Below are positions 25,670 to 44,853 of a DNA stretch of 44,853 nucleotides, piece by piece; within the stretch, counting starts at the first letter, position 1, and each line of letters opens with the position of its first letter. The DNA is taken from positions 10,659-55,511 of the forward strand of contig JAIMKT010000019.1 in NCBI GenBank assembly GCA_020692245.1, read 5' to 3'. The notes beneath the pieces were generated by a model. The model searched no databases. It had not been told where the DNA came from and worked only from the letters and a program-made list of their open reading frames with translations. The position numbers and the translations under genes were made by a program. The stretch is from Microcoleus sp. GA_180221_E-2-1-MAG-45_12. GTDB lineage: Bacteria; Cyanobacteriota; Cyanobacteriia; Cyanobacteriales; JAAUUE01.

Positions 25670-26446
25670 ATGGTTACATCATTCCAGAATAGCTCCCTGC
25701 CTACATCTAGCAATGTTCCTGAAGATTTCGGTTATCGAGGATTAATTATTGGACTCATAGTTATTGGAACATGGGCGGTAAGTACAGGGTTCCTATTTAC
25801 AATTGATGTCAGCCAGACCCCGATCTACTTAATAATTCCTGCCATGCTCTGGCAAATCTTTCTCTACACTGGTCTATTTATCACCGCCCACGATGCAATG
25901 CATGGGGTTGTCTTTCCCCAGAATAAAACCATTAATGATTTGGTGGGTAATGTCGCTGTTAAATCCTACGCCTTATTTGATTACCAAAAACTAGTCAAAA
26001 AACACTGGGAACACCACTACCATCCCGCTAGTACTGAAGACCCCGATTACCACGAAGGAACCCACAAAAACTTTTTTATCTGGTATGCAAAATTCATGGG
26101 AACCCACTGGAGTTGGTGGCGGATTTTGGGCTTGAGCTTGCTCTACAACGTGATGAAATCCCAGCTTCATATTCCTGATGACAATCTCACTCTATTTTGG
26201 GTATTACCTTCCCTCCTCAGTTCCGTACAACTTTTCTACTTCGGCACGTACCTGCCCCATCGAGAACCCGCAGCAGGCTATAGTGACGACCACCGAGCCA
26301 CCAGCAGCTATCGCCCTCTCTGGCTATCCTTTATCACCTGCTATCACTTCGGCTACCACTGGGAACACCACGAATATCCGCTCCTCCCTTGGTGGCAATT
26401 ACCCAAAGCAAGAAGAACTCTTTTGCCTGAATATGTTGCTGAGTAG
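25670..26446 (+). CDS. crtW: Beta-carotene ketolase
   Basis: LYTGLFITAHDAMHG, KHWEHHYHP..EDPDYH, QLFYFGTYLPH, TCYHFGYHWEHH..P.LPWWQLP. Confidence 0.93.
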   Translation: MVTSFQNSSLPTSSNVPEDFGYRGLIIGLIVIGTWAVSTGFLFTIDVSQTPIYLIIPAMLWQIFLYTGLFITAHDAMHGVVFPQNKTINDLVGNVAVKSYALFDYQKLVKKHWEHHYHPASTEDPDYHEGTHKNFFIWYAKFMGTHWSWWRILGLSLLYNVMKSQLHIPDDNLTLFWVLPSLLSSVQLFYFGTYLPHREPAAGYSDDHRATSSYRPLWLSFITCYHFGYHWEHHEYPLLPWWQLPKARRTLLPEYVAE

Positions 26447-26511
26447 ATATTAGTAGGGTGGGTAACGCCCACCAATAACCCCACCACAGATATTTTGTGT
26501 AGATGCTGTAG

Positions 26512-27177
26512 TTAAGAAGATAAGTCTTTTAACTCTTCCATCAGGTATATGCCCCTTGAAGTCCCTAGGCGAGTTGCTCCGGCAGTGATTAGTTCTGCGG
26601 CTTGGGCATAGGTTTTGATGCCTCCAGAAGCTTTGATGCCTACGGATCCTCCGGTGATTTCTTGCAACAGCCGGATATCGGCAACGGTAGCTCCCCCCCG
26701 CCAACCCGTACTAGTCTTCAGGAAGGCGACTCCCGCATCTAGACAGATTGCCGCAGCTAAACGAATTTCATCGGGGGTTAGTAAACTAGTTTCTAAGATT
26801 GCCTTGACTGGTCGATCGCTCTCTTCGCAGATTTGAGCAATATCTTGATAGACTTCTTCTTTCTTCCCCGCCTTCAGCCAGCCTAAATTAATCACTACAT
26901 CTAACTCATCAGCTCCATTATCCACCGCTTCTTGGGCTTCGTAGAGCTTGGCACTAGAAGTTGTCGCTCCGGTAGGAAACCCAATGACTGTACACACCTT
27001 AGGCTGTTTACCGTGGAGGAGTTGGGCAGCTTGATAGACAGCACTGGGATAGACACAGACGGAGGCAAAATGATAGCGATCGGCCTCTTCGCAACATTGG
27101 ATCACCATATCTGGGGTAGCGCAGGGATCGAGGAGGGAGTGATCAATAAAGGGCGCAAGGTTTATAAGTTGTTCCAT
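26512..27177 (-). CDS. deoC: Deoxyribose-phosphate aldolase
   Basis: [54 protein letters not shown]. Confidence 0.96.
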
Positions 27178-27224
27178 AGGATTTTAAGAGAGATTTTTTG
27201 AGAGATGTTGAGAGGGGATTGTTT

Positions 27225-28070
27225 ATGGGATGGGGGCAGAAAGTTGTTAAAGGGTTAAAAGTTGTTAAAGGGTTAAAGGGATTAGTGGGAGCTTTGGTTT
27301 TTTATACCCGTTTACCTGTTGCTGCCCAGATTCCCTACGAGATCGATCGCATTGGGCGGTTTGCTCCGGTGGTAGGTCTGCTCCTAGGGATTTGTCTAGT
27401 AATTGGGGATTGGGGGCTAGTCTGGTTGGGAATAGGGAGTTTTAGCCGGGCTGTTTTATTGGTTTGTCTGTGGTGTTTGCTGACGGGAGGCTTACATTTA
27501 GACGGGGTGATGGACACGGCGGATGGGTTAGCAGTGCAAAATCCACAACTCCGGCTCCAAGTGATGCAAGATAGCCAGACGGGAGCTTTTGGGGTAATGG
27601 CTGGGGGATTGTTACTCTTGCTAAAGGTAGCATTTTTAACAGACTTGGAACATAGTCAGGCTCTTATTTATAGTTCAGGTATTTATAGTCCAAGATTTTG
27701 GGCGTTGTTACTCGCTCCAGTATGGGGTCGATGGGGACAGGTGCTGGCGATCGCTTTCTATCCCTATCTACGACCAACGGGGAAGGGGGCTTTTTTGAAG
27801 GCAGAAATGCAACTGCCCATAGATTTTCTTTGGGGTGCAGGATGTTTGATCTTGCTCACGGGGCTACAAATCTGGAAAATGGGGAACTGGTGGTTTACTC
27901 TGGGGTCATTTCTGGGGGGTGGGACGATCGCTTGGGGAGTGGGCTATTGGTTCCATCGGCGTTTGGGTGGACACACGGGGGATTCCTACGGGGCAGTGGT
28001 GGAGTGGACGGAGGCGGCTTTTTTGGGACTGGTGTTGGTGGTTGAGGCGATGATCGATCGATTCACCTAG
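27225..28070 (+). CDS. cobS: Adenosylcobinamide-GDP ribazoletransferase (cobalamin synthase)
   Basis: FYTRLP, TGGLHLDGVMDTADG, MQDSQTGAFG, GGHTGDSYGAVVEWTE; start uncertain (27198 or 27225). Confidence 0.93.
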   Translation: MGWGQKVVKGLKVVKGLKGLVGALVFYTRLPVAAQIPYEIDRIGRFAPVVGLLLGICLVIGDWGLVWLGIGSFSRAVLLVCLWCLLTGGLHLDGVMDTADGLAVQNPQLRLQVMQDSQTGAFGVMAGGLLLLLKVAFLTDLEHSQALIYSSGIYSPRFWALLLAPVWGRWGQVLAIAFYPYLRPTGKGAFLKAEMQLPIDFLWGAGCLILLTGLQIWKMGNWWFTLGSFLGGGTIAWGVGYWFHRRLGGHTGDSYGAVVEWTEAAFLGLVLVVEAMIDRFT

Positions 28071-28115
28071 ATACTTTAGAATCAAGAATTAAAAATTAAA
28101 AAGAAATAATTAACG

Positions 28116-29693
28116 ATGCCTAAAAATAATAACTTGATACTTTCACCCCTCGCTCTATCTTTAGTTTTCTCTCTAGTTATCCAATCGATCGCCGGAGCCA
28201 CACCCCTAAAATTTGGACAGTTTGATCGGAGTATTGATCGAGGTTCTACTCAAGAATCTACTCAAGAATTACCCCTAGACTCTTCTCAAGAATTATCACC
28301 CAAAGCCGATCGATCCCCAGAGGCTGGAGCCAAACAAACTAGTTTCTGTGCCAATCAATTGGCTGGCTCTATTGACCAAATTATTCGAGAGGCGGGGTTC
28401 GCTCGATCGCAACTAGGAATTTTAGTGACAGGGGTGAATAGCAATCAAGAATTTTATAACCTGAATGGCGATCAGCTCATGATCCCGGCTTCTACGGTCA
28501 AGCTCCTAACTTCGGCAGCAATTCTCCATCAACTAGGGGCAGAGCATCGGATTCGTACTTCTATCTATGATCCCGGTGATAACTCCTTGGTGGCGATCGG
28601 GCGGGGGGATCCCAGCTTAGATAATGCTCAATTCCAACGCCTAGGGCAGCAACTCCGCAATCAAGGCAAAGGTAATATTAATCTCTTGATTGGGGACGAT
28701 AGTTATTTTCAAGGAAATTTATTTAATCCGGCATGGTCTTGGACTGATATCGAAAATGGGGATGCACCGCCTGTGAGTAGTTTGGTAGTTAACCAGAGCT
28801 ATGTGTATCTAAATCTTGCGCCCCAGCAGGCAGGCAGTCCCCTGCGGTTACGTTGGAGTGATCCCCTCGCTGGCAATCAATGGCGGGTGAGCAACAATAC
28901 CCGGACTGGCGGCAGTGGCTCTTCCATTCAGATTAATTTCAATCCCAACGAAAATATCCTGCGGCTAAGTGGCAATATGGCAGCCAATCGGGGAGCCGAG
29001 GAATTTGGCTTGTCAGTCATGGAGCCAAGTTTGTATTTTGTGCAACGTCTCCAATCGGAATTAAATAGTTTGGGGATCGTGGTGAATCAATCGAAAGTAC
29101 AGAGTAATGGATCGCCCCTTGTGATTCCTGATCTGTGGCAAGAAGTCGCCTTTGTGGAATCTGCTCCTCTGAGGGAATTATTAAAAGAAGTGAATGCTAG
29201 TAGCAATAATTTCTATGCCGAAATGTTGGCTGCCAAACTAGGCAGGGTGACAACGGGGGACGATCGCAACTGGTTAGCGGCGGTGGAAAATACCTTAACT
29301 GAATTGGGGGTAGATCCCAGAGGTTATCGCCTTGTAGACGCTTCAGGACTAGCTAGGCAAAATCAAGCCTCGGCGAGAGCGATCGTCCAGACTCTCCAAG
29401 CTATGGCAAAAACTCCAGAAGCTATAGCCTATCGTGATTCCTTCGCCCTTGCGGGAGAAACTGGCACTCTCAGTAATCGTCTCCGCAATACTCCTGCTGC
29501 TCGCATTTTTTGGGGTAAAACTGGGACTCTCCGGGGTGTTGTGTCTCTTTCTGGCTATCTAGAAAATCCCAACAATGAGCCATTAGCTGTCAGCATCACC
29601 GTGAATAATTCGCAAAGATCCACCGCAGATGTCCGGTTTGGGATCGATCGTCTTGTAGTTCAAATCAGTCGGCTACGCTCTTGCAACAATTGA
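28116..29693 (+). CDS. dacB: D-alanyl-D-alanine carboxypeptidase/endopeptidase (PBP4)
   Basis: PASTVK (SxxK), GRGDPSL, SNNFYAE (SxN), DASGL.R, GKTGTL (KTG); signal peptide. Confidence 0.94.
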   Translation: MPKNNNLILSPLALSLVFSLVIQSIAGATPLKFGQFDRSIDRGSTQESTQELPLDSSQELSPKADRSPEAGAKQTSFCANQLAGSIDQIIREAGFARSQLGILVTGVNSNQEFYNLNGDQLMIPASTVKLLTSAAILHQLGAEHRIRTSIYDPGDNSLVAIGRGDPSLDNAQFQRLGQQLRNQGKGNINLLIGDDSYFQGNLFNPAWSWTDIENGDAPPVSSLVVNQSYVYLNLAPQQAGSPLRLRWSDPLAGNQWRVSNNTRTGGSGSSIQINFNPNENILRLSGNMAANRGAEEFGLSVMEPSLYFVQRLQSELNSLGIVVNQSKVQSNGSPLVIPDLWQEVAFVESAPLRELLKEVNASSNNFYAEMLAAKLGRVTTGDDRNWLAAVENTLTELGVDPRGYRLVDASGLARQNQASARAIVQTLQAMAKTPEAIAYRDSFALAGETGTLSNRLRNTPAARIFWGKTGTLRGVVSLSGYLENPNNEPLAVSITVNNSQRSTADVRFGIDRLVVQISRLRSCNN

Positions 29694-29886
29694 CAGTTAT
29701 CAGTTATCAGTAAACAGTAAACAGTGAATAGTTGCTTTGATAAGTCTTACAATGAAAATGTCGAACTGCTTGGTACGAATATATCTTCATAGTGCAAAGC
29801 CTTGCGCCCCTACAATTGACTTTACTTCCTGTACCTCCCTGTACCTCCTGATAACTGTTCACTGTTAACTGATAACTGTTCACTGA
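29694..29886. repeat. Inverted STRR arrays enclosing a degenerate GTAG-family REP
   Basis: Left (CAGTTAT)2 CAGTAAA CAGTAAA CAGTGAA; right CTGATAACTGTTCACTGTTAACTGATAACTGTTCACTGA (29848-29886); inner GTGCAAAGCCTTGCGCCCCTAC (29792-29813). Confidence 0.8.
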
Positions 29887-29889
29887 TTT

Positions 29890-30810
29890 ATGCCTCAATC
29901 GATCGAGAAATTGGAAATAGAATTGGCAAAACTAGAATTGGCGATCGCCGATCTCTGTCAACAATTGACCACCATCTATCCTCCCTACCTCAAACTCTTT
30001 GGGGAAACTATTCGCCGCCAGTTAATCATGGCTGTGTATCAAATCTGTACGGATACCCATCCCCACGCTTTTCTACAAATGTCCCTGACCCAAAGATCGG
30101 ATCTACAAACCAAAATTAAGCATATTGCCCAAGGCATCCAGCAGCAAACTTTAGCTCCCTTAGAAAATCTGCGAGAGATTACGACTCCCGACTCTTCCCC
30201 GGAACTTCCTGATACACCAAATAATCTGCCAAGTAGTTCACTGAGTAATTCTCCAAATAATACCCTGAGTAACCTACTAACTAAAGCATCGGGCGATTCT
30301 CCAAAGGAGAGACTACACCAGCGACAATCTGGAAAAATCAAAGCTCTTGTACATTGGCAAAAACAAACAGATACAGAGATTAATCAACTATTGCAACAGG
30401 CTTCCCAAGAAGTAAATCAAGTCCTCCATCAAGCGGGATTACTTACCCAGAAACTGCCCCTGGGACTCCTCGAAGCTGCTGCCAAAATGGAATCCCTAAA
30501 CGCCACTGCCATTGTAGGGAAGCCCAGTATTCTCAACTTGATGATGGAAGTAGAAAGCCTCAAAGAAGGAAAAGATGATGATTCAGAAGAAGAGGAATCT
30601 GCCCCAAAGGAACCCATTGGTTTAACTGCGGTGTATCTCCGGTGGACAGAACTAGAATTTCATAGTCCAGAGTTGAGTCTGGCAGCCCAGAATGTTCGAT
30701 CGACCGTCAGCAAGCTCCACAACCTCGATCGAGAGTATCACCGCCTGTTAAAATATCATCAAGTTGCCCAAGCCCAAGCTGCTTGGCGATCGAGTTGGGT
30801 CGATGATTAG
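29890..30810 (+). CDS. Conserved cyanobacterial hypothetical coiled-coil protein
   Basis: 306-aa ORF; RRQLIMAVYQICT..HPHAFL, YLRWTELEF, AQAAWRSSW. Confidence 0.78.
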   Translation: MPQSIEKLEIELAKLELAIADLCQQLTTIYPPYLKLFGETIRRQLIMAVYQICTDTHPHAFLQMSLTQRSDLQTKIKHIAQGIQQQTLAPLENLREITTPDSSPELPDTPNNLPSSSLSNSPNNTLSNLLTKASGDSPKERLHQRQSGKIKALVHWQKQTDTEINQLLQQASQEVNQVLHQAGLLTQKLPLGLLEAAAKMESLNATAIVGKPSILNLMMEVESLKEGKDDDSEEEESAPKEPIGLTAVYLRWTELEFHSPELSLAAQNVRSTVSKLHNLDREYHRLLKYHQVAQAQAAWRSSWVDD

Positions 30811-30887
30811 AGAGCGAGTTTCCCCATATTTTGCGCTGGATCGATCGAGTCAAGGCTCAACCCCATTACATCAGTATTACCGACTAG
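30811..30887 (+). pseudogene. 3' remnant of a glutathione S-transferase-like gene
   Basis: Manual translation ...SEFPHILRWIDRVKAQPHYISITD*, resembling the GST C-terminal 'FP.I..W..RV..QP' helix; no start codon. Confidence 0.55.
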
Positions 30888-30990
30888 TGACGAGTGGCTC
30901 CTGATTTAGGAGATCATGCAATAATGGTAATTATAGATATATATTTTTTTAATCTTCAAGATTTCCTAAATTAAGAGCGATCGCCGTCCC

Positions 30991-33129
30991 ATGCAAGAAA
31001 TCCTATACCTAGAAATTCCCACCCCTCATACTTCTCAAGTGATCCAGTGGCTCCAGCAGCATTGGCAACCCAGCCATGGGGAAATTAAGCCTAGTCCAGA
31101 GGGAGTCCAGTGGTATGCAGCCTCCACATCTCAGGAGCGATCGTCCCTAGGAGCAAGCAATCTAGGAGATATTAATATTTTTCTGTGGTCATTGCAGAGG
31201 ACTACCTACCTGAAGGCGTTTCGCTACCAAGCCCAACCCCTTCCCCAAGAATCTGTCCTGCTTGTCCAACTCCAACGGCAACTAAGGATTACTTTCCCGC
31301 CCCAGTATCCAGAGCCGCCCTCGATCGATCCTCAAGTTTCCATCTTCACTGCCCTCGCACCCTACTACCCCGAAACCGTTAAATTTTTCCAAAAAATCCC
31401 CAAGGGAGAAGCAGACCTGAACCGAGTTTATTGGTGGGAGCAGCGCTGGCGGGAAGGAGTCCGCAATCCCCAAACCCCGAAGCAGGTCTTATTTGCTGAT
31501 CATGCAAAAAGTAGTTCTGGTGATCCAGAGTCACCCAGTTATGATTTGGTTTACCTAGGGGGAGCCTTGGGCGTGATCCATGCCGCAGTGATGGCTCGGT
31601 TGGGCTACAAGGTACTGCTGGTGGAGCGGTTAGGCTTTGGCAGAATGAACCGGGAATGGAATATTTCTAGAGATGAATTCCAGAGTTTAATTGATCTAGG
31701 TTTGTTTACACCAAGCCAGTTTGCCAGCGTGATTGCCAAGGAATATCTAGATGGGTTTAATAAATTTTTTGATGCCAACAATCCCCCCAGTCTAAAATCC
31801 CCAATTCTCCATACTCCCAAGGTGTTAAATATTTGCATCGATGCGGAAAAGCTCCTCAACCTCTGTGGGGAAAAACTGCGGGCAGCCGGGGGCGAAATTT
31901 GGGATGAGACGGAATTTATTTCTGCCAATATCGCCGTCGATCGAGCCACCCTTTCCCTCACCCATTTACCGACTAAAACCCCAAAAACCGTAACTACCAG
32001 ATTAATTGTGGATGCCATGGGAACCGCTTCCCCGATCGCTTGGCAGTTGAACGGCGGACGAGCCTTTGATAGTGTGTGTCCGACGGTGGGCGGGGTGGTG
32101 AGCAAGGGGTTTGATCCTGAAGTTTGGGATCTCGACTACGGCGATGTCTTAAATAGTCATGGGGACATTTCCCGTGGCAGGCAGCTAATTTGGGAACTCT
32201 TCCCCGGTGCGGATGGCGAAATTACCATCTATCTATTCCACTACCATCAGGTGAATGCCACTAACCCCGGTTCCCTGCTGGAAATGTATGAAGACTTTTT
32301 TACCATCCTGCCAGAATATCGGCGTTGTGATATGGAAAAACTGGAGTGGCGGAAGGCAACTTTTGGTTATATTCCGGGACATTTTAGCGTGGGGAGTCGC
32401 GATCGAACCGTGGCTTTCGATCGATTAATTGCCATTGGGGATGCGGCTTCTTTGCAATCTCCCCTCGTGTTTACGGGCTTCGGCTCCCTAGTGCGGAATT
32501 TAGGCAGGTTAACCCATCTTTTAGATACTGCCCTCAAGCACGATCTCCTCAAGGCAGAGAACCTGAATCAAATCCGGGCTTACCAGAGCAATACTGCTGT
32601 CACTTGGCTCTTTTCTAAGGGGATGATGGTACCGACGGGGGCGAGTCTCCCACCCCAGAGAATTAATTCTATGCTGAATACCTTTTTTGGGATTTTAGCC
32701 GACGAACCCGCCTCGATCGCCGATACCTTCATCAAAGACCGCACTAACTGGCTCACCTTCAACCGTCTTGCCATCAAAGCTGCCCTCAGAAACCCCGGTC
32801 TGCTCATCTGGATTTGGCAGTTGGCAGGATTTAAGGATATTCTCCGGTGGCTGGGTAGCTATGTAGATTTTACTGTCACCGCTTTTATTGGTTGGTTACT
32901 GGCGGGTTGGGTTCCCCAGCTTTTCCAAAAATATCAATCTTGGCTAGAATCCAAATTTCCAGCTCTGTGGCTCCGGTGTTTGGCGCAAACCTATGCTTGG
33001 AAGCATGGCTTAGGGAAAAATCAAAAACTTAAAGTTACTGGGGAAATTCTTAAGTCTCCCATGAAAAACTCGCTCCCGGTCGATCGTCCCCTCGTGGCTC
33101 CCCTGCCGCCCCAGAAAACTAATAATTAA
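30991..33129 (+). CDS. cruA: CruA-type lycopene cyclase (FAD-dependent), copy 1
   Basis: YDLVYLGGALG FAD motif, MNREWNISRDE, VDAMGTASPIA, DSVCPTVG, IGDAASLQSPLVFTGFGSLVR; long N-terminal domain typical of cyanobacterial CruA rather than CruP. Confidence 0.8.
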   Translation: MQEILYLEIPTPHTSQVIQWLQQHWQPSHGEIKPSPEGVQWYAASTSQERSSLGASNLGDINIFLWSLQRTTYLKAFRYQAQPLPQESVLLVQLQRQLRITFPPQYPEPPSIDPQVSIFTALAPYYPETVKFFQKIPKGEADLNRVYWWEQRWREGVRNPQTPKQVLFADHAKSSSGDPESPSYDLVYLGGALGVIHAAVMARLGYKVLLVERLGFGRMNREWNISRDEFQSLIDLGLFTPSQFASVIAKEYLDGFNKFFDANNPPSLKSPILHTPKVLNICIDAEKLLNLCGEKLRAAGGEIWDETEFISANIAVDRATLSLTHLPTKTPKTVTTRLIVDAMGTASPIAWQLNGGRAFDSVCPTVGGVVSKGFDPEVWDLDYGDVLNSHGDISRGRQLIWELFPGADGEITIYLFHYHQVNATNPGSLLEMYEDFFTILPEYRRCDMEKLEWRKATFGYIPGHFSVGSRDRTVAFDRLIAIGDAASLQSPLVFTGFGSLVRNLGRLTHLLDTALKHDLLKAENLNQIRAYQSNTAVTWLFSKGMMVPTGASLPPQRINSMLNTFFGILADEPASIADTFIKDRTNWLTFNRLAIKAALRNPGLLIWIWQLAGFKDILRWLGSYVDFTVTAFIGWLLAGWVPQLFQKYQSWLESKFPALWLRCLAQTYAWKHGLGKNQKLKVTGEILKSPMKNSLPVDRPLVAPLPPQKTNN

Positions 33130-33915
33130 ATGATCGATCGCAACCAAGAAACCTATCAAACTCCCAGTCTTGTTCGGCACTACACCCAATTAAACAAGCT
33201 CCAACCCGCAGAACAGACAATTTTGGAACTCTTGCGAGACCAACTCCCGACCATGAGAATGTTAGATATTGGCATTGGTGGCGGCAGAACAACTCAGCAC
33301 TTTTCCCCTTTAGCTGGAGAGTATACGGGGATAGATTATTCTCCCCAAATGATTGCCGCCTGTCAGCAACGATTTGCCCGATCGCCCCAAACCATGGCTC
33401 TAGAGGTGATGGATGCCAGAAACATGCACCAGTTTGCGGATAATTCCTTTGATTTTATTTTGTTTAGCTTCAATGGGATTGATTATGTGTCGGGGAGCGA
33501 TCGATTAAAAATCCTCTCAGAAGTCGCTAGGGTTGGCAAAACTGGCTGTTACTTTTATTTTTCTAGTCACAATCTTCAAGGCATAGCAGCAGAGTTTAAT
33601 TGGCGCACCAAGTTAAGTTTAAATCTTCTAAAGACCTATGTTAATTTAGTGATGCTGGGCTTATTAAATATATTCAACTTAGAAACTACTCGCAAACAAC
33701 TAGAAACCGCTGATTATTTAATCATTAAAGATGAGTCCCATAACTTCCGGCTACAAACTTATTACATCCGTCCCCAAGCCCAAATCCAACAGTTAGAACC
33801 TAGTTTTGAAGAGATTAAAATCTACTCATGGCAAACTGGTTTAGAAATTACTAATCTTCAAGAGTTATCGACAAATTTTGATATGTGGTTTTATTATCTT
33901 TGTATAGTTAAATAG
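33130..33915 (+). CDS. Class I SAM-dependent methyltransferase, copy 1
   Basis: MLDIGIGGGRTT, YTGIDYSPQMI, MDAR.M..FADNSFDFILFSFNGID; ATG directly follows the cruA TAA. Confidence 0.9.
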   Translation: MIDRNQETYQTPSLVRHYTQLNKLQPAEQTILELLRDQLPTMRMLDIGIGGGRTTQHFSPLAGEYTGIDYSPQMIAACQQRFARSPQTMALEVMDARNMHQFADNSFDFILFSFNGIDYVSGSDRLKILSEVARVGKTGCYFYFSSHNLQGIAAEFNWRTKLSLNLLKTYVNLVMLGLLNIFNLETTRKQLETADYLIIKDESHNFRLQTYYIRPQAQIQQLEPSFEEIKIYSWQTGLEITNLQELSTNFDMWFYYLCIVK

Positions 33916-33951
33916 GTTAAACAAATTAAACAAATTAAATGAATTAAATAG

Positions 33952-34403
33952 TTAATTCTTAATCCCAGTCGCAGCAATTCCTCGGATAAATTGGCGTTGC
34001 CCAATAATAAATAAAACTACGATCGGAAGCGTGGCGATCGCTACCCCCGCCATGAGTAATTGCCAATTATTTGTAAACTGTTCCTGCAACTCTGCTAGAG
34101 CTAATTGGACTGTGCGTAATTCTGGGCGAGTCGTAAAAACTAGGGGCTTAAATAAATCATTCCATTCCGCAATAAAAGTAAATAAAAATAATGTCACCAA
34201 GGCGGGACGAGCCAAGGGCAGAATAACATGCCAGAGAATTTGCCACGGTGTTGCTCCATCAAGGGCAGCAGCATCTTCTAGCTCAATGGGGATAGTTTGG
34301 AAATATTGACGCATGAGAAATATGCCAAAACCATTAGCCGCCGTGGGGAGAATTAACGCCCAGTAAGTATTAATCATCCCGCCCCATTTTAATACCAAAA
34401 AAA
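33952..34403 (-). pseudogene. 5'-truncated copy of the sugar ABC permease
   Basis: Identical to the 3' half of 37449-38333; cut at the duplication junction, with an in-frame TGA just upstream. Confidence 0.92.
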
Positions 34404-34487
34404 TAGGAGATCATGCAATAATGGTAATTATAGATATATATTTTTTTAATCTTCAAGATTTCCTAAATTAAGAGCGATCGCCGTCCC

Positions 34488-36626
34488 ATGCAAGAAATCC
34501 TATACCTAGAAATTCCCACCCCTCATACTTCTCAAGTGATCCAGTGGCTCCAGCAGCATTGGCAACCCAGCCATGGGGAAATTAAGCCTAGTCCAGAGGG
34601 AGTCCAGTGGTATGCAGCCTCCACATCTCAGGAGCGATCGTCCCTAGGAGCAAGCAATCTAGGAGATATTAATATTTTTCTGTGGTCATTGCAGAGGACT
34701 ACCTACCTGAAGGCGTTTCGCTACCAAGCCCAACCCCTTCCCCAAGAATCTGTCCTGCTTGTCCAACTCCAACGGCAACTAAGGATTACTTTCCCGCCCC
34801 AGTATCCAGAGCCGCCCTCGATCGATCCTCAAGTTTCCATCTTCACTGCCCTCGCACCCTACTACCCCGAAACCGTTAAATTTTTCCAAAAAATCCCCAA
34901 GGGAGAAGCAGACCTGAACCGAGTTTATTGGTGGGAGCAGCGCTGGCGGGAAGGAGTCCGCAATCCCCAAACCCCGAAGCAGGTCTTATTTGCTGATCAT
35001 GCAAAAAGTAGTTCTGGTGATCCAGAGTCACCCAGTTATGATTTGGTTTACCTAGGGGGAGCCTTGGGCGTGATCCATGCCGCAGTGATGGCTCGGTTGG
35101 GCTACAAGGTACTGCTGGTGGAGCGGTTAGGCTTTGGCAGAATGAACCGGGAATGGAATATTTCTAGAGATGAATTCCAGAGTTTAATTGATCTAGGTTT
35201 GTTTACACCAAGCCAGTTTGCCAGCGTGATTGCCAAGGAATATCTAGATGGGTTTAATAAATTTTTTGATGCCAACAATCCCCCCAGTCTAAAATCCCCA
35301 ATTCTCCATACTCCCAAGGTGTTAAATATTTGCATCGATGCGGAAAAGCTCCTCAACCTCTGTGGGGAAAAACTGCGGGCAGCCGGGGGCGAAATTTGGG
35401 ATGAGACGGAATTTATTTCTGCCAATATCGCCGTCGATCGAGCCACCCTTTCCCTCACCCATTTACCGACTAAAACCCCAAAAACCGTAACTACCAGATT
35501 AATTGTGGATGCCATGGGAACCGCTTCCCCGATCGCTTGGCAGTTGAACGGCGGACGAGCCTTTGATAGTGTGTGTCCGACGGTGGGCGGGGTGGTGAGC
35601 AAGGGGTTTGATCCTGAAGTTTGGGATCTCGACTACGGCGATGTCTTAAATAGTCATGGGGACATTTCCCGTGGCAGGCAGCTAATTTGGGAACTCTTCC
35701 CCGGTGCGGATGGCGAAATTACCATCTATCTATTCCACTACCATCAGGTGAATGCCACTAACCCCGGTTCCCTGCTGGAAATGTATGAAGACTTTTTTAC
35801 CATCCTGCCAGAATATCGGCGTTGTGATATGGAAAAACTGGAGTGGCGGAAGGCAACTTTTGGTTATATTCCGGGACATTTTAGCGTGGGGAGTCGCGAT
35901 CGAACCGTGGCTTTCGATCGATTAATTGCCATTGGGGATGCGGCTTCTTTGCAATCTCCCCTCGTGTTTACGGGCTTCGGCTCCCTAGTGCGGAATTTAG
36001 GCAGGTTAACCCATCTTTTAGATACTGCCCTCAAGCACGATCTCCTCAAGGCAGAGAACCTGAATCAAATCCGGGCTTACCAGAGCAATACTGCTGTCAC
36101 TTGGCTCTTTTCTAAGGGGATGATGGTACCGACGGGGGCGAGTCTCCCACCCCAGAGAATTAATTCTATGCTGAATACCTTTTTTGGGATTTTAGCCGAC
36201 GAACCCGCCTCGATCGCCGATACCTTCATCAAAGACCGCACTAACTGGCTCACCTTCAACCGTCTTGCCATCAAAGCTGCCCTCAGAAACCCCGGTCTGC
36301 TCATCTGGATTTGGCAGTTGGCAGGATTTAAGGATATTCTCCGGTGGCTGGGTAGCTATGTAGATTTTACTGTCACCGCTTTTATTGGTTGGTTACTGGC
36401 GGGTTGGGTTCCCCAGCTTTTCCAAAAATATCAATCTTGGCTAGAATCCAAATTTCCAGCTCTGTGGCTCCGGTGTTTGGCGCAAACCTATGCTTGGAAG
36501 CATGGCTTAGGGAAAAATCAAAAACTTAAAGTTACTGGGGAAATTCTTAAGTCTCCCATGAAAAACTCGCTCCCGGTCGATCGTCCCCTCGTGGCTCCCC
36601 TGCCGCCCCAGAAAACTAATAATTAA
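34488..36626 (+). CDS. cruA: CruA-type lycopene cyclase, copy 2
   Basis: Translation identical to copy 1. Confidence 0.8.
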   Translation: MQEILYLEIPTPHTSQVIQWLQQHWQPSHGEIKPSPEGVQWYAASTSQERSSLGASNLGDINIFLWSLQRTTYLKAFRYQAQPLPQESVLLVQLQRQLRITFPPQYPEPPSIDPQVSIFTALAPYYPETVKFFQKIPKGEADLNRVYWWEQRWREGVRNPQTPKQVLFADHAKSSSGDPESPSYDLVYLGGALGVIHAAVMARLGYKVLLVERLGFGRMNREWNISRDEFQSLIDLGLFTPSQFASVIAKEYLDGFNKFFDANNPPSLKSPILHTPKVLNICIDAEKLLNLCGEKLRAAGGEIWDETEFISANIAVDRATLSLTHLPTKTPKTVTTRLIVDAMGTASPIAWQLNGGRAFDSVCPTVGGVVSKGFDPEVWDLDYGDVLNSHGDISRGRQLIWELFPGADGEITIYLFHYHQVNATNPGSLLEMYEDFFTILPEYRRCDMEKLEWRKATFGYIPGHFSVGSRDRTVAFDRLIAIGDAASLQSPLVFTGFGSLVRNLGRLTHLLDTALKHDLLKAENLNQIRAYQSNTAVTWLFSKGMMVPTGASLPPQRINSMLNTFFGILADEPASIADTFIKDRTNWLTFNRLAIKAALRNPGLLIWIWQLAGFKDILRWLGSYVDFTVTAFIGWLLAGWVPQLFQKYQSWLESKFPALWLRCLAQTYAWKHGLGKNQKLKVTGEILKSPMKNSLPVDRPLVAPLPPQKTNN

Positions 36627-37412
36627 ATGATCGATCGCAACCAAGAAACCTATCAAACTCCCAGTCTTGTTCGGCACTACACCCAATTAAACAAGCTCCA
36701 ACCCGCAGAACAGACAATTTTGGAACTCTTGCGAGACCAACTCCCGACCATGAGAATGTTAGATATTGGCATTGGTGGCGGCAGAACAACTCAGCACTTT
36801 TCCCCTTTAGCTGGAGAGTATACGGGGATAGATTATTCTCCCCAAATGATTGCCGCCTGTCAGCAACGATTTGCCCGATCGCCCCAAACCATGGCTCTAG
36901 AGGTGATGGATGCCAGAAACATGCACCAGTTTGCGGATAATTCCTTTGATTTTATTTTGTTTAGCTTCAATGGGATTGATTATGTGTCGGGGAGCGATCG
37001 ATTAAAAATCCTCTCAGAAGTCGCTAGGGTTGGCAAAACTGGCTGTTACTTTTATTTTTCTAGTCACAATCTTCAAGGCATAGCAGCAGAGTTTAATTGG
37101 CGCACCAAGTTAAGTTTAAATCTTCTAAAGACCTATGTTAATTTAGTGATGCTGGGCTTATTAAATATATTCAACTTAGAAACTACTCGCAAACAACTAG
37201 AAACCGCTGATTATTTAATCATTAAAGATGAGTCCCATAACTTCCGGCTACAAACTTATTACATCCGTCCCCAAGCCCAAATCCAACAGTTAGAACCTAG
37301 TTTTGAAGAGATTAAAATCTACTCATGGCAAACTGGTTTAGAAATTACTAATCTTCAAGAGTTATCGACAAATTTTGATATGTGGTTTTATTATCTTTGT
37401 ATAGTTAAATAG
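36627..37412 (+). CDS. Class I SAM-dependent methyltransferase, copy 2
   Basis: Translation identical to copy 1. Confidence 0.9.
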   Translation: MIDRNQETYQTPSLVRHYTQLNKLQPAEQTILELLRDQLPTMRMLDIGIGGGRTTQHFSPLAGEYTGIDYSPQMIAACQQRFARSPQTMALEVMDARNMHQFADNSFDFILFSFNGIDYVSGSDRLKILSEVARVGKTGCYFYFSSHNLQGIAAEFNWRTKLSLNLLKTYVNLVMLGLLNIFNLETTRKQLETADYLIIKDESHNFRLQTYYIRPQAQIQQLEPSFEEIKIYSWQTGLEITNLQELSTNFDMWFYYLCIVK

Positions 37413-37448
37413 GTTAAACAAATTAAACAAATTAAATGAATTAAATAG

Positions 37449-38333
37449 TTAATTCTTAATCCCAGTCGCAGCAATTCCTCGGATAAATTGGCGTTGCCCA
37501 ATAATAAATAAAACTACGATCGGAAGCGTGGCGATCGCTACCCCCGCCATGAGTAATTGCCAATTATTTGTAAACTGTTCCTGCAACTCTGCTAGAGCTA
37601 ATTGGACTGTGCGTAATTCTGGGCGAGTCGTAAAAACTAGGGGCTTAAATAAATCATTCCATTCCGCAATAAAAGTAAATAAAAATAATGTCACCAAGGC
37701 GGGACGAGCCAAGGGCAGAATAACATGCCAGAGAATTTGCCACGGTGTTGCTCCATCAAGGGCAGCAGCATCTTCTAGCTCAATGGGGATAGTTTGGAAA
37801 TATTGACGCATGAGAAATATGCCAAAACCATTAGCCGCCGTGGGGAGAATTAACGCCCAGTAAGTATTAATCATCCCGCCCCATTTTAATACCAAAAAAA
37901 TCGGAATTACTAATAGTTGAAAAGGAATAATTAGGGTGGCAATTATCAATAGTAATAGAAGTTTTCTGCCGGGAAATTGTAATCTGGCGAGGGCATAACC
38001 AGCTAGGGATGAGGTGATTATTTGGAGGGCTGTTACTGCCAAAGCAACTAGGGTAGAGTTGCCAAAAGCAAGGAGAAATTTCCCCCGACTCCAAGCCTCT
38101 TCATAGTTTGCCCAAGTAAAACCGCCTTCTAGGTTGGTGAAGGAAAAATATAGGGGGACTAATAAAGGTAGAAGAACAATTAATACACCTAGAAATAACA
38201 GCAGGATAGAGAAGATCGATCGATCCCCCAACATCACACCCCCTAAAACCTGTCGCCCAGAGTTAGCTTGTGAATTATGAGAAGTGCTTAAATTACTAGA
38301 TAGCTTATTTGGTGAATTTTGATTCATAGCCAT
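37449..38333 (-). CDS. Carbohydrate ABC transporter permease (MalG-like)
   Basis: NYEEAW, FGNS, LAGYALARL.FPG, EAA loop [30 protein letters not shown]. Confidence 0.93.
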   Translation of the reverse strand: MAMNQNSPNKLSSNLSTSHNSQANSGRQVLGGVMLGDRSIFSILLLFLGVLIVLLPLLVPLYFSFTNLEGGFTWANYEEAWSRGKFLLAFGNSTLVALAVTALQIITSSLAGYALARLQFPGRKLLLLLIIATLIIPFQLLVIPIFLVLKWGGMINTYWALILPTAANGFGIFLMRQYFQTIPIELEDAAALDGATPWQILWHVILPLARPALVTLFLFTFIAEWNDLFKPLVFTTRPELRTVQLALAELQEQFTNNWQLLMAGVAIATLPIVVLFIIGQRQFIRGIAATGIKN

Positions 38334-38468
38334 TGATTAACCTGTTCTTGAGATAGATTCATAATCTCCGCTACCTGTTGCTGAGAAATCTTCTACTTAA
38401 TAATTGGTGATTTTCTCCATCCATTCAGTACCTAGTGTATCCTGAGAAAAACACTTGAGGAGAGAATT

Positions 38469-39191
38469 ATGGGTTGGCAGCGATCGCACGGCAGAAAATT
38501 TAATCAGCTTCGTCCCCTGAGTTTTGTCCGCAGTTTTACCCGCTTTGCTACTGGTTCCGTGTTAGCTAAGTGTGGTGATACTCAAGTTCTTTGTACTGTA
38601 AGTATCAGTCCGGGAGTACCTAGATTCCTCGAAGGACAGGGACAGGGATGGCTAACGGCAGAATACCGAATGCTCCCCGGTGCTACCCCTCAGAGACACC
38701 CACGGGAATGGCAAAAACTTTCTGGCAGAACTCAAGAAATTCAGCGTTTGGTGGGGCGGAGTCTCCGGGCTGCTCTAGACATGAAGCTCTTAGGAGAAAG
38801 AACAATCACCATTGATGCAGATGTGCTGCAAGCTGATGCTGGCACGAGGACTACGGCGATTAACGGCGGTTTTGTGGCTTTGGGGGAAGCGATCGAGCAA
38901 CTTTTAGCCAGGGGTGAACTGGAGCGATCGCCGATCGTTCATCAAATTGGGGCTGTTTCCGTGGGCTTATTAGAAAATGAACCTTTTTTAGATTTAGATT
39001 ATCCTGAAGATGTGGGTGCAGAGGTAGATCTCAATGTGGTCATGAACGAGGAATTACAGTTAATTGAAGTGCAAGGTACTGCCGAACACCAAAGTTTTAG
39101 CCGTCAGCAACTTAATGAAATGCTGGATCTAGCCGAAGTTGGTATTAAAGAAATATTTGACTTGCAAAAGAAAGCCCTGATTTCTTCCTGA
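38469..39191 (+). CDS. rph: Ribonuclease PH
   Basis: [52 protein letters not shown]. Confidence 0.97.
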
Positions 39192-39254
39192 AACTTTGGT
39201 AAATAGAAATAATATCAAACCTTCTATTTATTTTATTAAATTTTATTTATATCT

Positions 39255-41057
39255 ATGCCAGAAATCATCAAGAATACTTGGCAACATCTCCAGAAAAATG
39301 CCAGAGCAAAATTAGCATTGATCATGTTAGTTATTGCTCTCATCGGTCTGCCTGTAGTGAATGACTACGGGATCACTGTAGATGAAGGCACAGAAATTTC
39401 TATGGTACGCCGCAATCTAGAATGGGTCGCCAATGGCACGCCAATTCCGGGTGATTTAAAATATTTTGGGACGGCTTTTAATGTTTTCTCAGAAACAATT
39501 TTTCAAGCAAAAGAATTTGTAGTTAATGGCTTTTCTTTTAAGAGTCTAGATTATGCACAACAGCTAAATAGTGAAGCAAGTAGGCTCCAAGCTCTGAAGG
39601 ATCGAGTGATCGTCAAACATTATGTAACTTTTATTTTTTCGGGAATTACCTACCTCGCAGTAGCTGGGATCGTAAGTATTTTTTGTGGGGTAGAGTATGC
39701 ATGGTTAGGAGCTTTGAGTTTAGCAGTGATGCCAATTCATTGGGGGCATAGTTTCTTTAATCCCAAAGATACTCCCTTTGCAGCCATGTTTACTCTCTCT
39801 AGTTTAATGGGAGCTTATTTAATTAATTATTATCTAGGCAACAATCAGGATAGTAATAATCAGGAAGAAAATAATCGGGACGATCGAGCTTATCCAAACA
39901 ATTCAAAGCCCACAGAGTATCCAGATCATCCAAATCCTCTCGGTAATCTAAATCAGCAAAAAATCAAGCTAGGTAATAATCAAGCTACTACCTATACTAT
40001 TTTTTATGGAATTCTTCTAGGCTTAAGTTCTGGGGTGAGAATTGGAGCTTTTTTGATTTTATTTTTCTTTTTGATTACTTACTTAATTCTCTGGTGGGAA
40101 CGGGGTAGAGATAAGGAATCATTAGTTAATTTTGCTGGGTTATATCTAGCTCTGGGTATTACTTGGGCGATCGTTCATGCCATTTTTTATCCGGGGTTTT
40201 GGGGTAATCCGATCGCTGGCTTTTTTGAAACCTTAAATTATCTATCTAACCATAGCCTCAAGATTACGGTTCTATTCAAGGGCTGGAATTTTCCGATCCA
40301 AAAAATATCAAGATGGTATTTGCCTACGTGGATTTTTATGGCAGTGCCTGTAATATTTAACTTTGGATTTCTAGTCGGTTCAACGTGGATTATTGCTCGG
40401 TATCGGCAGCTTTCTATCTTACAAAAATCCTGTGCTATGCTCCTCTGGTGGCAAATATTACTCCTGCCTCTATTTGCTGTAGTTAGAAGAACTCCTGTAT
40501 ACGATGGAATGCGGCATTTTCTATTCATTACACCGGGATTAGTAGCCTTTACAGTAATAGCAATTGTTTGGTTATATCAGGGATTAAATAAATTTAGTAG
40601 CAAAAATTATCAACGTTTTAGTAGCAAAAATTATCAACGTTTTTTAGTAGGGCTAGTAACAGCCATATATTTAGCAATCATGATAGACATGGTGAGTTTA
40701 CATCCTTACCAGTATGCCTATGTGAATCGAGTTGCCGGCGGAATTCAGGCGACCCCAGACCAGTTTGATCTAGAAATTCTCGGCTTGAGCCTGCGGGAGG
40801 GGATGGAATGGTTAAATGAAAATGGAACTTCTAGTAGTAAGGTATTAATAGGCGGATTACCAAATTCAGCCAAATTATATGCTGCTCCCAGATTTCAAAT
40901 ATTTTCTGTTGAAGATAGTCAGGCAAATTTTGATAAACCTTTTTATTATCTAAGTTGGCTGCGTTGGGGACAGCAGTATGAATTTTCAGAATGTCCGATC
41001 GTCCATCAAGTAACCCGGCAAGGGGTATCTTTTGCGGTAATTCGTGAGTGTAAATAG
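39255..41057 (+). CDS. GT-C superfamily membrane glycosyltransferase (ArnT/PMT-like)
   Basis: Multi-TM; DYGITVDE, GHSFFNPKDTPFA, YDGMRHFLF, HPYQYAYVN. Confidence 0.72.
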   Translation: MPEIIKNTWQHLQKNARAKLALIMLVIALIGLPVVNDYGITVDEGTEISMVRRNLEWVANGTPIPGDLKYFGTAFNVFSETIFQAKEFVVNGFSFKSLDYAQQLNSEASRLQALKDRVIVKHYVTFIFSGITYLAVAGIVSIFCGVEYAWLGALSLAVMPIHWGHSFFNPKDTPFAAMFTLSSLMGAYLINYYLGNNQDSNNQEENNRDDRAYPNNSKPTEYPDHPNPLGNLNQQKIKLGNNQATTYTIFYGILLGLSSGVRIGAFLILFFFLITYLILWWERGRDKESLVNFAGLYLALGITWAIVHAIFYPGFWGNPIAGFFETLNYLSNHSLKITVLFKGWNFPIQKISRWYLPTWIFMAVPVIFNFGFLVGSTWIIARYRQLSILQKSCAMLLWWQILLLPLFAVVRRTPVYDGMRHFLFITPGLVAFTVIAIVWLYQGLNKFSSKNYQRFSSKNYQRFLVGLVTAIYLAIMIDMVSLHPYQYAYVNRVAGGIQATPDQFDLEILGLSLREGMEWLNENGTSSSKVLIGGLPNSAKLYAAPRFQIFSVEDSQANFDKPFYYLSWLRWGQQYEFSECPIVHQVTRQGVSFAVIRECK

Positions 41058-41090
41058 TGTACATTAGGTAATGTAAATTAATATTGAAGT

Positions 41091-41597
41091 ATGAATTATT
41101 TAATTGCTGTTCTGAGCGATCGCATCCAAGCAGAAGAGGCTTACACAGCTTTGGAAACGGCTGGATTAACCACTAGGCAAGTCAGTATTCTGGGCAGGGG
41201 CTATAAAAGTGCCGATGAATTTGGTCTCATTGATCCTAAGCTGCAAGCCCAACAGCAGGCTCAACGGATGATTTACTGGTTAGCTCCCTTTGGCTTTATT
41301 GCCGGATTTGGTTTTAATGTTGTTACCGGGCTAGATACTTTTCCTTGGGCAGGAACCTTGGGTAATCAGATCATTGGCGGTATTTTTGGGTCGATCGCTG
41401 GGATGATGGGCGGTTTCTTCGTTGGCGGTGGCGTGGGCTTGGTGGGCAGTGGTGATGCTCTACCCTATCGAAATCGTCTTGATGCGGGTAAGTATTTAAT
41501 CGTTGTCCAAGGGACGGATAGTTTAACTAGTCAAGCTACTAAGGTTTTGAAAAAGTTTAATCCCGAAAGCATCCAAGGCTACCAAGAAGAAGGTTAA
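41091..41597 (+). CDS. Hypothetical membrane protein with Gly-rich helices
   Basis: MNYLIAVL.DRIQAEEAYTALE, ILGRGYKSADEFG, YRNRLDAGKYLIVV. Confidence 0.8.
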   Translation: MNYLIAVLSDRIQAEEAYTALETAGLTTRQVSILGRGYKSADEFGLIDPKLQAQQQAQRMIYWLAPFGFIAGFGFNVVTGLDTFPWAGTLGNQIIGGIFGSIAGMMGGFFVGGGVGLVGSGDALPYRNRLDAGKYLIVVQGTDSLTSQATKVLKKFNPESIQGYQEEG

Positions 41598-41619
41598 AAA
41601 TCATTGTTTATGTTACCTT

Positions 41620-42399
41620 ATGTTACCTAGAGTAGAATTATTAAAAGGTTTAGAAAATCGAGAAACCATTGCAAGGGTGATTGATCTAGCCGAGCAAGCC
41701 ATTAAAACGTGGGAAGTGGTGGTGACGGATTTTCTCTCGCCGCCGGAGTTGGTCGAAGTTCGCCAAGTATTCGATCGCCTCACAGAAATTCAGTTAGTGG
41801 TCTGGGGTGGTTATCCCCAAGCAGAAAGACAGCGTTGTGCGATCGCCAGAGCCGATATTCCCCTCAGCCAAGAGAGTGTCACCCTCGCCGCCGTGGACAT
41901 CGCCGGAAATTTTCTCTTTGATCCCGCCACTCACCGAGATTTTTTGGGTTCTTTGCTGGGCTGTGGCATTGTCCGAGAAAAAACTGGGGATATCATTATC
42001 CTCGGAGAACGGGGAGCGCAGGCGATCATAGTACCAGAAATGGTGGAATTTCTCACTCTGCATCTGCAACAGGTGCGATCGGTACCAGTCCAAGTCAAAG
42101 AGATTTCCCTCACTGATCTAAAAATTCGAGAACCCAAGAAAAAAGAACTAACCACCGTTGAAGCCTCCTTGCGTTTGGATGCGATCGCTTCGGCTGGGTT
42201 TGGGCTATCTCGGAGCAAAATGGTAGATTTCATTAACTCTGGGGATGTACGGGTAAATTGGAAGGATGTGAGCCAATCTAGCTACAACCTAAAGATGGGG
42301 GATTTGGTAGCTCTGCGGGGTAAAGGTCGGCTAGAAGTCGGGGAAATTACTGTCACCAAAAAAGACCGTTATCGAGTTCAGTTAACTCGTTTTCTCTAA
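41620..42399 (+). CDS. YlmH/Sll1252-type S4 RNA-binding domain protein
   Basis: TDFLSP, GGYPQAERQR, ATHRDFLG, REKTGDI, VEASLRLDAIASAGFGLSRSK, RGKGR. Confidence 0.92.
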   Translation: MLPRVELLKGLENRETIARVIDLAEQAIKTWEVVVTDFLSPPELVEVRQVFDRLTEIQLVVWGGYPQAERQRCAIARADIPLSQESVTLAAVDIAGNFLFDPATHRDFLGSLLGCGIVREKTGDIIILGERGAQAIIVPEMVEFLTLHLQQVRSVPVQVKEISLTDLKIREPKKKELTTVEASLRLDAIASAGFGLSRSKMVDFINSGDVRVNWKDVSQSSYNLKMGDLVALRGKGRLEVGEITVTKKDRYRVQLTRFL

Positions 42400-43499: not shown

Positions 43500-44853
43500 T
43501 TACCAAGGATTGCCGACCATAGTAAATGCACTCCAGAAATAGGGATGCCGGAGCGATCGATCGCCCAGACTTCTTAATTCATCAGTCAGAGGAATAGTAC
43601 CATTGACTGTTACCAGATTTCCACCCTCTAACCGCACTTCTCCCCGGAGCATTGCTAACTGTGCTTGTCGTAATGCTTCTGCCTTAGTAGTTGTCACCTG
43701 TAATTGTTGATAGAACTTAGTCATTAACCCTAAAGTTGCTGCATCATTCACTTCCCACAAACTCGCTAGGGCAGACCTGACTCCAGCATTGATGGCTAAA
43801 CTGGCAAAACCTAACTCCGCATCTCGATCGCCCAAGGCGGTTTGACAAGCACTAAGTACCAATAAATCTACCGGAGGATTGCCCCAATTAAGCTGGCTAA
43901 GTTGGTCTAGGCTCAGTTTCTGATCCCAAAGTTGAATATAGGAATTGGCTCGATCGCCCGGACTAAACACTGCATGGGTGGCAAGATGAATCATCCGAAA
44001 CGGTCTAGCCTGTCGTTGCTGAATAAGGTTATTTAGGGTAAAGCGATCGTTCAAAAACTCTGAACCTTGCCATAGTTCACTAACGGTATTTACTTCTAAA
44101 GACACGGCGGGTAAAGGACTTAAGCCAGAATCACCAAAAGTCGTCGCCCCCATCGCCAAGACCTGAGAACCTTCTAGAGGATTGTAGGTAGGTGGAGTTA
44201 AGTTGAGAGAGGGCATTAAGCCTACACTGTAGCGTTCTACAATAAATCCCTGACCATCATGGAGAGCCGCGAGGGGGATCGATCGTAGTCCTGTATCCAT
44301 CAAAAATACTAAGTTATCAATCCCTTGGGCTTGGAGTTCAGCTTCCAAAGGTGCTATTAACCACTTATACATCTGTTGAGATGGAGTCAGAAACCCACGC
44401 GAGCTACGAAAATTAGTCACTTCAGAACGAAAATTATTAGCTACTTCCAATACTTGGCGGCGGGTAGTTGTAGGAAACTGGACTCGAACCGGTTCTCCTT
44501 TCCCATTAATCATAATTATTTCCAGAAGATCATTCTCCCCAGCAGTGCGATTAGTTTGGGCAGCTAAATTAGCACTATTAAAGTTATTAGAGCTATCTTG
44601 AGGAGCAAAGAAAACATAAACTAGGGCAGGTTTAACTCTAGTAGTTTCAGTAATCAGATTGAGCTTAATTTTAGTGTCTTGTAAATTATATTGGGTGTTT
44701 AATTGCGAGTTAATATCTTCTTCCGATCTATTAGCTGTTGTCGAATTGCTTGTTTGATTGGAATTTGCTAAAGAATTTGCTTCACTTCCCGATCCATTAG
44801 CTGTTGTCGAATTGCTTGTTTGATTGGAATTTACTAAAGAATTTGCTTCACTT
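43500..44853 (-). CDS. CHAT (caspase-like) domain protein, 3' part; starts beyond the window end
   Basis: Frame open to window end; IPLAALHDG..FIVERY, IHLATHA (His), LLVLSACQTALGD (Cys), ASLWEVND, HPYFWSAFTMVGNPW. Confidence 0.9.
   Translation of the reverse strand, partial: SEANSLVNSNQTSNSTTANGSGSEANSLANSNQTSNSTTANRSEEDINSQLNTQYNLQDTKIKLNLITETTRVKPALVYVFFAPQDSSNNFNSANLAAQTNRTAGENDLLEIIMINGKGEPVRVQFPTTTRRQVLEVANNFRSEVTNFRSSRGFLTPSQQMYKWLIAPLEAELQAQGIDNLVFLMDTGLRSIPLAALHDGQGFIVERYSVGLMPSLNLTPPTYNPLEGSQVLAMGATTFGDSGLSPLPAVSLEVNTVSELWQGSEFLNDRFTLNNLIQQRQARPFRMIHLATHAVFSPGDRANSYIQLWDQKLSLDQLSQLNWGNPPVDLLVLSACQTALGDRDAELGFASLAINAGVRSALASLWEVNDAATLGLMTKFYQQLQVTTTKAEALRQAQLAMLRGEVRLEGGNLVTVNGTIPLTDELRSLGDRSLRHPYFWSAFTMVGNPW
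44723..44853 (-). repeat. 66-bp coding tandem repeat in the CHAT gene (two units visible)
   Basis: SEANSLVNSNQTSNSTTANGSG / SEANSLANSNQTSNSTTANRSE. Confidence 0.9.

Follow-up and report, generated by a model that had tools for sequence, protein, structure and literature searches.

The window analyzed here is a 44,853-nucleotide (nt) stretch of the genome of Microcoleus sp. GA_180221_E-2-1-MAG-45_12 (contig JAIMKT010000019.1). It carries the same 3.5-kb segment twice, head to tail, and the segment includes cruA, a gene for a predicted lycopene cyclase, and a methyltransferase gene. Is the second copy genuine, and if so, how did it arise and what might it do for the cell? The evidence given below makes it very probable that the repeat is a genuine duplication, likely a single recent event, that arose by homology-independent break-and-join between chromosome copies and that is predicted to give both genes about twice their dose.

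The repeat unit and its genes

The assembly is a gapped draft of 4.2 Mb in 132 contigs, about 95% complete, and runs of N flank the window on both sides. Comparing the window with itself gave a head-to-tail repeat with a unit of 3,497 bp, at 30907 to 34403 and 34404 to 37900. At a period of 3,497 there was a single run of identity, 30907 to 34404 versus 34404 to 37901; it covers 3,498 positions, so that exactly one T is common to the joined ends. This T is present at the left parental site, at the junction, and at the right parental site. When the copies were aligned, they were identical letter for letter, with no single-nucleotide difference. The 59-bp word that spans the junction occurs once in the assembly, and the repeat is the only one longer than 400 bp with at least 95% identity in the 4.2 Mb; the runner-up was a pair of paralogues with 92% identity on contig C113.

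The features of the region are as follows (X1 to X3 are sequencing runs described below; ORF, open reading frame; aa, amino acids).

30907 to 34403, plus strand: unit copy 1 (repeat comparison; Logan contig 30907 to 34404 in X1 and X3)
34404 to 37900, plus strand: unit copy 2, letter-identical to copy 1 (repeat comparison; Logan contigs)
34375 to 34433, no strand: new junction, join at 34403/34404 with one shared T (59-bp contig in X1 and X3; loop closure in X2)
30991 to 33129, plus strand: cruA orthologue copy 1, 712 aa, predicted lycopene cyclase (ORF, homology)
33130 to 33915, plus strand: class I S-adenosylmethionine-dependent methyltransferase copy 1, 261 aa (ORF, family scans)
33952 to 34403, minus strand: 3' half of an ABC permease gene of the carbohydrate type, codons 145 to 294, cut at the junction (ORF)
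34488 to 36626, plus strand: cruA orthologue copy 2, 712 aa, with only 84 nt of native upstream sequence (ORF)
36627 to 37412, plus strand: methyltransferase copy 2, 261 aa (ORF)
37449 to 38333, minus strand: intact ABC permease gene, UgpE/MalG-like, containing the right breakpoint at 37901 (ORF, family scans)
30898 to 30912, no strand: borderline hairpin with a 5-bp stem and a 5-nt loop that holds the left breakpoint (about 5% of random sites score equally)
34427 to 34456, minus strand: candidate sigma-70-like promoter, a 10/12 consensus match placed before the truncated permease gene by the junction (consensus scoring)

Thus, the window holds two identical 712-aa ORFs and two identical 261-aa ORFs, and the ATG of the methyltransferase gene immediately follows the cruA stop codon (33129/33130). 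The full permease gene is kept in copy 2, and copy 1 retains codons 145 to 294 only. A first-pass annotation of the window had described just this arrangement, two intact gene pairs and a truncated permease gene in an exact 3,497-bp repeat joined at a single T, and the ORFs and the self-comparison bear it out. A fusion protein across the junction was considered and ruled out: an in-frame stop codon three codons upstream of the join closes the permease frame. Because no terminator-like site was found between the methyltransferase gene and the junction, read-through transcription into cruA copy 2 may be possible. A scan of 26000 to 42000 against Rfam gave no matches.

The junction in sequencing runs

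We compared 5 of the 22 listed sequencing runs (X1 to X5), using Logan assembled contigs rather than raw reads. Runs X1 to X3 belong to one study of an aquifer metagenome (P1), and X4 and X5 come from two other studies; all the sampled words of the window were present in three P1 runs among the 22. The depth of the unit contig was divided by the mean depth of the two adjacent long flank contigs, a ratio that is not to be equated with copy number.

In X1 and X3 the unit was one 3,498-bp contig that ended exactly at the breakpoints, 30907 and 34404/37901; in X2 it was a closed 3,527-bp loop contig whose joint goes back 3,497 positions. The junction itself was present without a mismatch as a 59-bp contig (34375 to 34433) with a depth of 14.7 in X1 and 9.5 in X3, which is 1.55 and 1.09 times the depth of the flanks. 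The ratio of unit to flanks was 2.01 in X1 (19 versus 9.21 and 9.7), 1.79 in X2 (14.6 versus 8.12 and 8.17), and 1.82 in X3 (15.9 versus 9.01 and 8.42), as the first-pass annotation had proposed for a collapsed single copy. The other two runs represent the single-copy parental state in close strains. In X4, from a strain about 98% identical, one contig crosses 30907 with a depth of 11.5 versus 8.9 over the unit; there was neither a rise in depth over the unit nor a joint leading back. Depth was flat in X5, with no junction piece among the pieces listed, and the only loose end was that of the normal left flank.

In rph, runs X2 and X3 have 10 differences from the window, 7 of which are at third codon positions. 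The junction is therefore not confined to one library but is common to nonidentical samples. Allele tracts that differ between and within X1 to X3 are clustered at 38547 to 38882 (rph), 26374 to 26517, 28703 to 28823, and 29348 to 29408, which suggests coexisting, recombining haplotypes. The identity of the two copies in the assembly is not in itself proof that the event was recent, since a graph assembler would write the same edge two times. Recency is better judged from the runs that retain two-allele bubbles nearby, where the unit is still one unbroken contig.

The junction pattern had no matches in either the JGI metagenome contigs or the viral contigs, which is no proof of absence. An 81-kb NCBI contig carries a truncated permease of 141 aa; since a contig end would give the same gene call, we did not take it as support.

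Several observations weigh against a plain reading of two tandem copies. The depths were not exactly additive, as the ratio of junction to flank in X1 makes clear. In X3 the nearest short right-flank contig had a depth of 6.09 and contigs further left had depths of 5.3 to 8.9, which would give higher ratios. Copy number is thus about 2, and a mixture of cells with 1, 2, and 3 copies is possible. All of the support comes from assembled contigs, so copy number is approximate; the three positive runs are from one study, which may be the source of this genome; and the tandem order was deduced, as no fragment covers both copies.

Sequence at the breakpoints

Random joints with this spacing overlapped by at least 1 nt in 44% of cases, which puts the single shared T at the level expected by chance. 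The weak resemblance of TAGGA to TCGGA at the join, which had been noticed earlier, is there, and a 4-of-5 match touching the joint occurred in 6% of 39,719 random joints; a match of this type occurred in 8.5% of 5,000 AT-matched random joints. Within 60 bp, the two parental sites had a direct match of at most 7 nt, and it was out of register.

The earlier statement that no HIP1, REP, or insertion sequence (IS) lies at the junction also holds. The HIP1 octamer was absent from the breakpoints, the nearest being 70 and 370 bp away; self-BLAST of the window found no repeat at either breakpoint; and no transposase family was found among the seven proteins scanned (those of the unit ORFs and the adjacent genes). 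Searching the 95%-complete assembly for a Ku gene gave no matches, and the control search was positive in Bacillus subtilis. We therefore found no support for HIP1-mediated rearrangement (no octamer at the breakpoints), duplication by an IS or transposon (no transposase in the scanned proteins and no end repeats), and nonhomologous end joining by Ku and LigD (Ku not found). The genome has one match to recA and has the competence genes dprA and comEC. By the features tested, this is a tandem duplication of the class that is independent of short homology.

The stem score at the left breakpoint was equaled by 4.6% of 3,972 random sites, and that of the weak, imperfect stem at the right breakpoint was equaled by 7.3%. 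The right site barely folds: 75% of 1,487 random sites fold equally well or better.

CruA in this genome and its relatives

The 712-aa protein had no match in Pfam, and in NCBIfam it had only a weak match to the geranylgeranyl-reductase superfamily of flavoproteins. JGI labels many of its homologues lycopene cyclase CruA, two of them from its own 90%-identity cluster. It shared 65 to 68% identity with the orthologue of about 700 aa, versus 32 to 36% with a shorter paralogue of 521 to 550 aa, which we take to be CruP. The protein is thus a CruA orthologue and a predicted lycopene cyclase, as had been proposed before; orthology was assigned through homologues and their labels. The closest named genome record (L013) shows 81% protein identity.

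Matches to cruA were found in 197 of 201 genomes of the order (196 of 200 when this genome is excluded), and each of four congeneric genomes has one cruA. Five of the 200 other genomes had two matches. Four of these had low best scores, which suggests split genes, and one, G091, has two full-length genes; these lie on separate contigs (C122 and C19) with 69% and 65% identity and are not in tandem. None of 160 related loci had a second copy of cruA, 140 of them with at least 3.5 kb on at least one side, but collapsed assemblies would hide such duplications in relatives.

We found no CruP-like paralogue in this genome, G001, G002, or G004 (assemblies 87 to 95% complete); a paralogue with 32 to 36% identity was present in four comparison genomes, G003 and three of other genera. 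Its absence may possibly reflect a loss at the level of the lineage. No CrtL scored above the family cutoff in this assembly. With neither cruP nor crtL found, cruA is the only cyclase candidate found in the assembly. A gene for a beta-carotene ketolase, crtW, lies at 25670 to 26446, 4.5 kb to the left of the duplication, and scored above the NCBIfam cutoff. A second crtW-like gene with 52% identity is on a different contig (C72, 19368 to 20066).

The methyltransferase and other neighbors

The methyltransferase had only generic class I matches, all below the NCBIfam cutoffs, and carries automatic UbiE labels. It was found in 5 of 41 genomes, and its neighbors differ among G001, G003, and G040; in G001 it starts with GTG and lies behind another gene. 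A conserved cruA-methyltransferase module was considered and rejected, since none of 160 cruA loci had the methyltransferase nearby. The congeners carry the two genes in different contexts: in two of them cruA is followed by what we take, from its sequence, to be a thrB-like gene, and one has a block of methyltransferase, permease, and rph genes on another contig. The adjacency seen here is therefore species specific, and the pair is the product of a rearrangement and not a conserved carotenoid module.

Just to the left of the duplication, at 30813 to 30887, is the 3' remnant of a gene that appears from its sequence to encode a protein like glutathione S-transferase. Congener G001 has a whole gene of this kind (200 aa) between a 306-aa ORF and cruA, and G002 shares the deletion. 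At 29685 to 29890 there are short repeated intergenic elements that occur many times in the genome and the genus; they lie about 1 kb away from the left breakpoint. At the end of the window, before the gap of N (44720 to 44853), a 65-bp unit is present in two near-identical copies. The runner-up pair on C113 (55965 to 60034) consists of adjoining paralogous membrane-protein genes with a 644-bp exact core inside a 1.4-kb stretch of 92% identity; gene conversion or assembly collapse could account for it.

How the duplication may have arisen and spread

The cyanobacterium is probably polyploid. We propose that two breaks, one in the region upstream of cruA (30907) and one within the permease gene (37901) of a sister chromosome, were joined. 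The route would have been gyrase-type end joining or a template switch, which cannot be told apart here, aided at most by the imperfect T-x-GGA match. RecA, acting on 3.5 kb of perfect homology, could then expand or collapse the array. Reviews describe such a scheme of two steps, formation of a junction followed by RecA-dependent expansion or collapse (PMC11721125). Loss of units of this size would be slow, and the slow loss of a 3.3-kb duplication in Pseudomonas aeruginosa (see below) implies that the array could persist without continuing selection. The intact permease gene kept in the last copy suggests that the duplication probably costs little. To reach most chromosomes, it requires either selection or clonal expansion. 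Clonal expansion is the likely means of spread; mild selection for extra CruA, and so for more bicyclic beta-carotene and ketocarotenoids, would be the most plausible helper, but it is unproven and we hold it somewhat less probable than its absence. That the unit captured intact genes is no sign of selection, for among 20,000 random segments of 3,497 bp, 86% contain a whole ORF with 84 nt upstream and 51% contain two whole ORFs.

Could the repeat instead be an artifact, an assembler error or a library chimera, as the first-pass annotation had allowed? The assembly is a gapped draft, and the positive runs come from one study and may share a protocol. At the level of contigs, however, this is largely refuted: the same junction, exact to the base, and about twofold depth were present in all three P1 runs, the samples differ in nearby alleles, and one junction would not recur at chromosome-level depth through random chimeras. 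An artifact is thus the least probable of the alternatives. Hardly more probable is an extrachromosomal circle of 3.5 kb, present beside single-copy chromosomes and unrolled by the assembler. The closed loop in X2 is what such a circle would give, and short reads cannot tell a circle and a tandem array apart. Yet the unit encodes cruA, the methyltransferase, and half a permease, with no replication protein, and a nonreplicating circle should not reach about one per chromosome. Excision should also leave a deletion join from 30906 to 37902, and none was listed, although contigs drop rare variants; the listed flank contigs of X1 and X3 extend 30 bp into the unit on both sides. The other option of the first-pass annotation, a recent duplication by illegitimate recombination, is the one that the junction contigs, the depth, and the single-copy close strains support.

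The endpoints and the spread of the duplication raise two further possibilities. The hairpin at the left breakpoint might be a preferred cleavage site for a nuclease, a topoisomerase, or an HUH transposase, and thus a hotspot for endpoints. Both breakpoints do fall in loops, the left in that of the 5-bp hairpin and the right in that of a weak, imperfect stem, and an inverted repeat at one endpoint is also reported for a pneumococcal duplication (PMC4432121). But the hairpin test was devised after the sequence had been seen, the right site has no folding energy to speak of, there is no motif common to the two sites, and a single event is known; we consider a site-directed event improbable. Selected amplification is a more serious candidate, although it would add a cause to the proposed break-and-join and leave the mechanism unchanged. 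Here extra CruA or methyltransferase would be advantageous and would have made the duplication frequent, some cells perhaps carrying more copies. Junction depth about equal to or above that of the flanks in X1 and X3 means that the junction is widespread among the cells; for duplications not under selection, frequencies of 1e-2 to 1e-5 per site are reported (PMC12607827); cruA is sensitive to a lowered dose, in that a knockdown is reported to slow growth by about 40% (PMC8291087); and it is the only cyclase candidate found in the assembly. Against this, short duplications that are not selected are reported to last for thousands of generations (PMC12607827), and this one would be fixed passively by a clonal bloom or bottleneck. 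The methyltransferase gene is equally doubled. In addition, the event is not visibly recurrent (no second cruA at 160 related loci and, on separate contigs, two in 1 of 200 genomes), although collapsed assemblies could hide it. We judge selected amplification a real possibility that falls a little short of even.

Comparison with known duplications

A junction nearly free of homology is not unusual: in Acinetobacter, 36 of 104 junctions had no identity (as cited in PMC4432121), and junctions in Acinetobacter baylyi ADP1 are reported to have 0 to 5 bp of identity (PMC9997567). The cat amplification of ADP1 (PMC9997567; Reams and Neidle 2004, as cited in PMC4432121) is like the present case in its head-to-tail repeat, short junction identity, lack of an IS, and the presence of recA and competence genes. 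However, its amplicons are 12 to 290 kb, selected in the laboratory, at high copy, and with a known selected gene, whereas this one is 3.5 kb, at about two copies, and environmental. Another parallel is the 9.2-kb patAB duplication of Streptococcus pneumoniae M184, which is described as having no direct repeats and an inverted repeat at one end (PMC4432121). In both cases the segment is present twice, direct repeats are lacking at its ends, one endpoint has an inverted repeat, and the second copy lies in a new sequence context. For M184, the same report gives measurements of phenotype, overexpression by read-through, transfer by transformation, and loss at 0.018 per generation (PMC4432121); the duplication described here is known from sequence alone.

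In P. aeruginosa an engineered 3.3-kb duplication is reported to be lost at about 1.6e-4 per generation, a half-life of about 4,300 generations (PMC12607827). The 2.6- and 3.3-kb duplications of that species are of the same size class as ours and predict slow loss and a capacity for further amplification, but they were engineered, with a marker at the junction and a noncyanobacterial host, and their rates may not carry over. A 2026 preprint on a detection tool gives 4 to 53 tandem duplications per reference genome and junction microhomology of 0 to 3 bp in evolved isolates (10.64898/2026.05.22.727201). The titles that our literature search covered, with most subscription journals outside it, included none on duplication of cruA or on such events in natural cyanobacterial populations.

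Carotenoid dosage

CruA lycopene cyclases are reported from Synechocystis (sll0147), Synechococcus 7002, and Arthrospira (PMC8291087, PMC11857680). The protein encoded here is likewise a full-length orthologue, its own 90% cluster is labeled CruA, and it is distinct from the paralogue with 32 to 36% identity. It differs in that its gene is present twice and is coupled to a methyltransferase gene, the CruP-like paralogue was not found in the genome, and its activity is predicted.

It had been suggested that the amplification raises the dosage of the cyclase, which feeds the synthesis of myxol as well as beta-carotene. The gene count is doubled, which may or may not raise expression, and the methyltransferase gene is doubled equally. 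As for myxol, the direction is probably wrong. In a Synechocystis cruA knockdown, myxoxanthophyll is reported to have risen to 326%, while beta-carotene, zeaxanthin, and echinenone went down and the doubling time was 40% longer (PMC8291087). Extra CruA, if dosage matters, is therefore expected to favor bicyclic carotenoids and not myxol.

A bolder idea, which we regard as speculative and improbable, is that the junction is sweeping through a wild recombining population by natural transformation, being rebuilt in different haplotypes under selection for CruA in a lineage without CruP and CrtL. The junction is common in samples that differ in the allele tracts of their flanks, and competence genes are present, both consistent with transfer; in pneumococcus, such transfer is reported to have been shown (PMC4432121).

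The class of mechanism has long been known, and the importance of the finding is modest. What it offers is a clear case, backed by sequencing data, of a short gene duplication that is free of repeats and frequent in environmental samples of cyanobacteria. Assemblies usually lose duplications of this class, and the gene affected here is single copy in almost all relatives examined. If differences in pigment and fitness prove true, the duplication would offer a test, in nature, of whether carotenoid flux is limited by CruA. It would also test whether short duplications can serve as a stable memory, open to renewed amplification, outside the laboratory.

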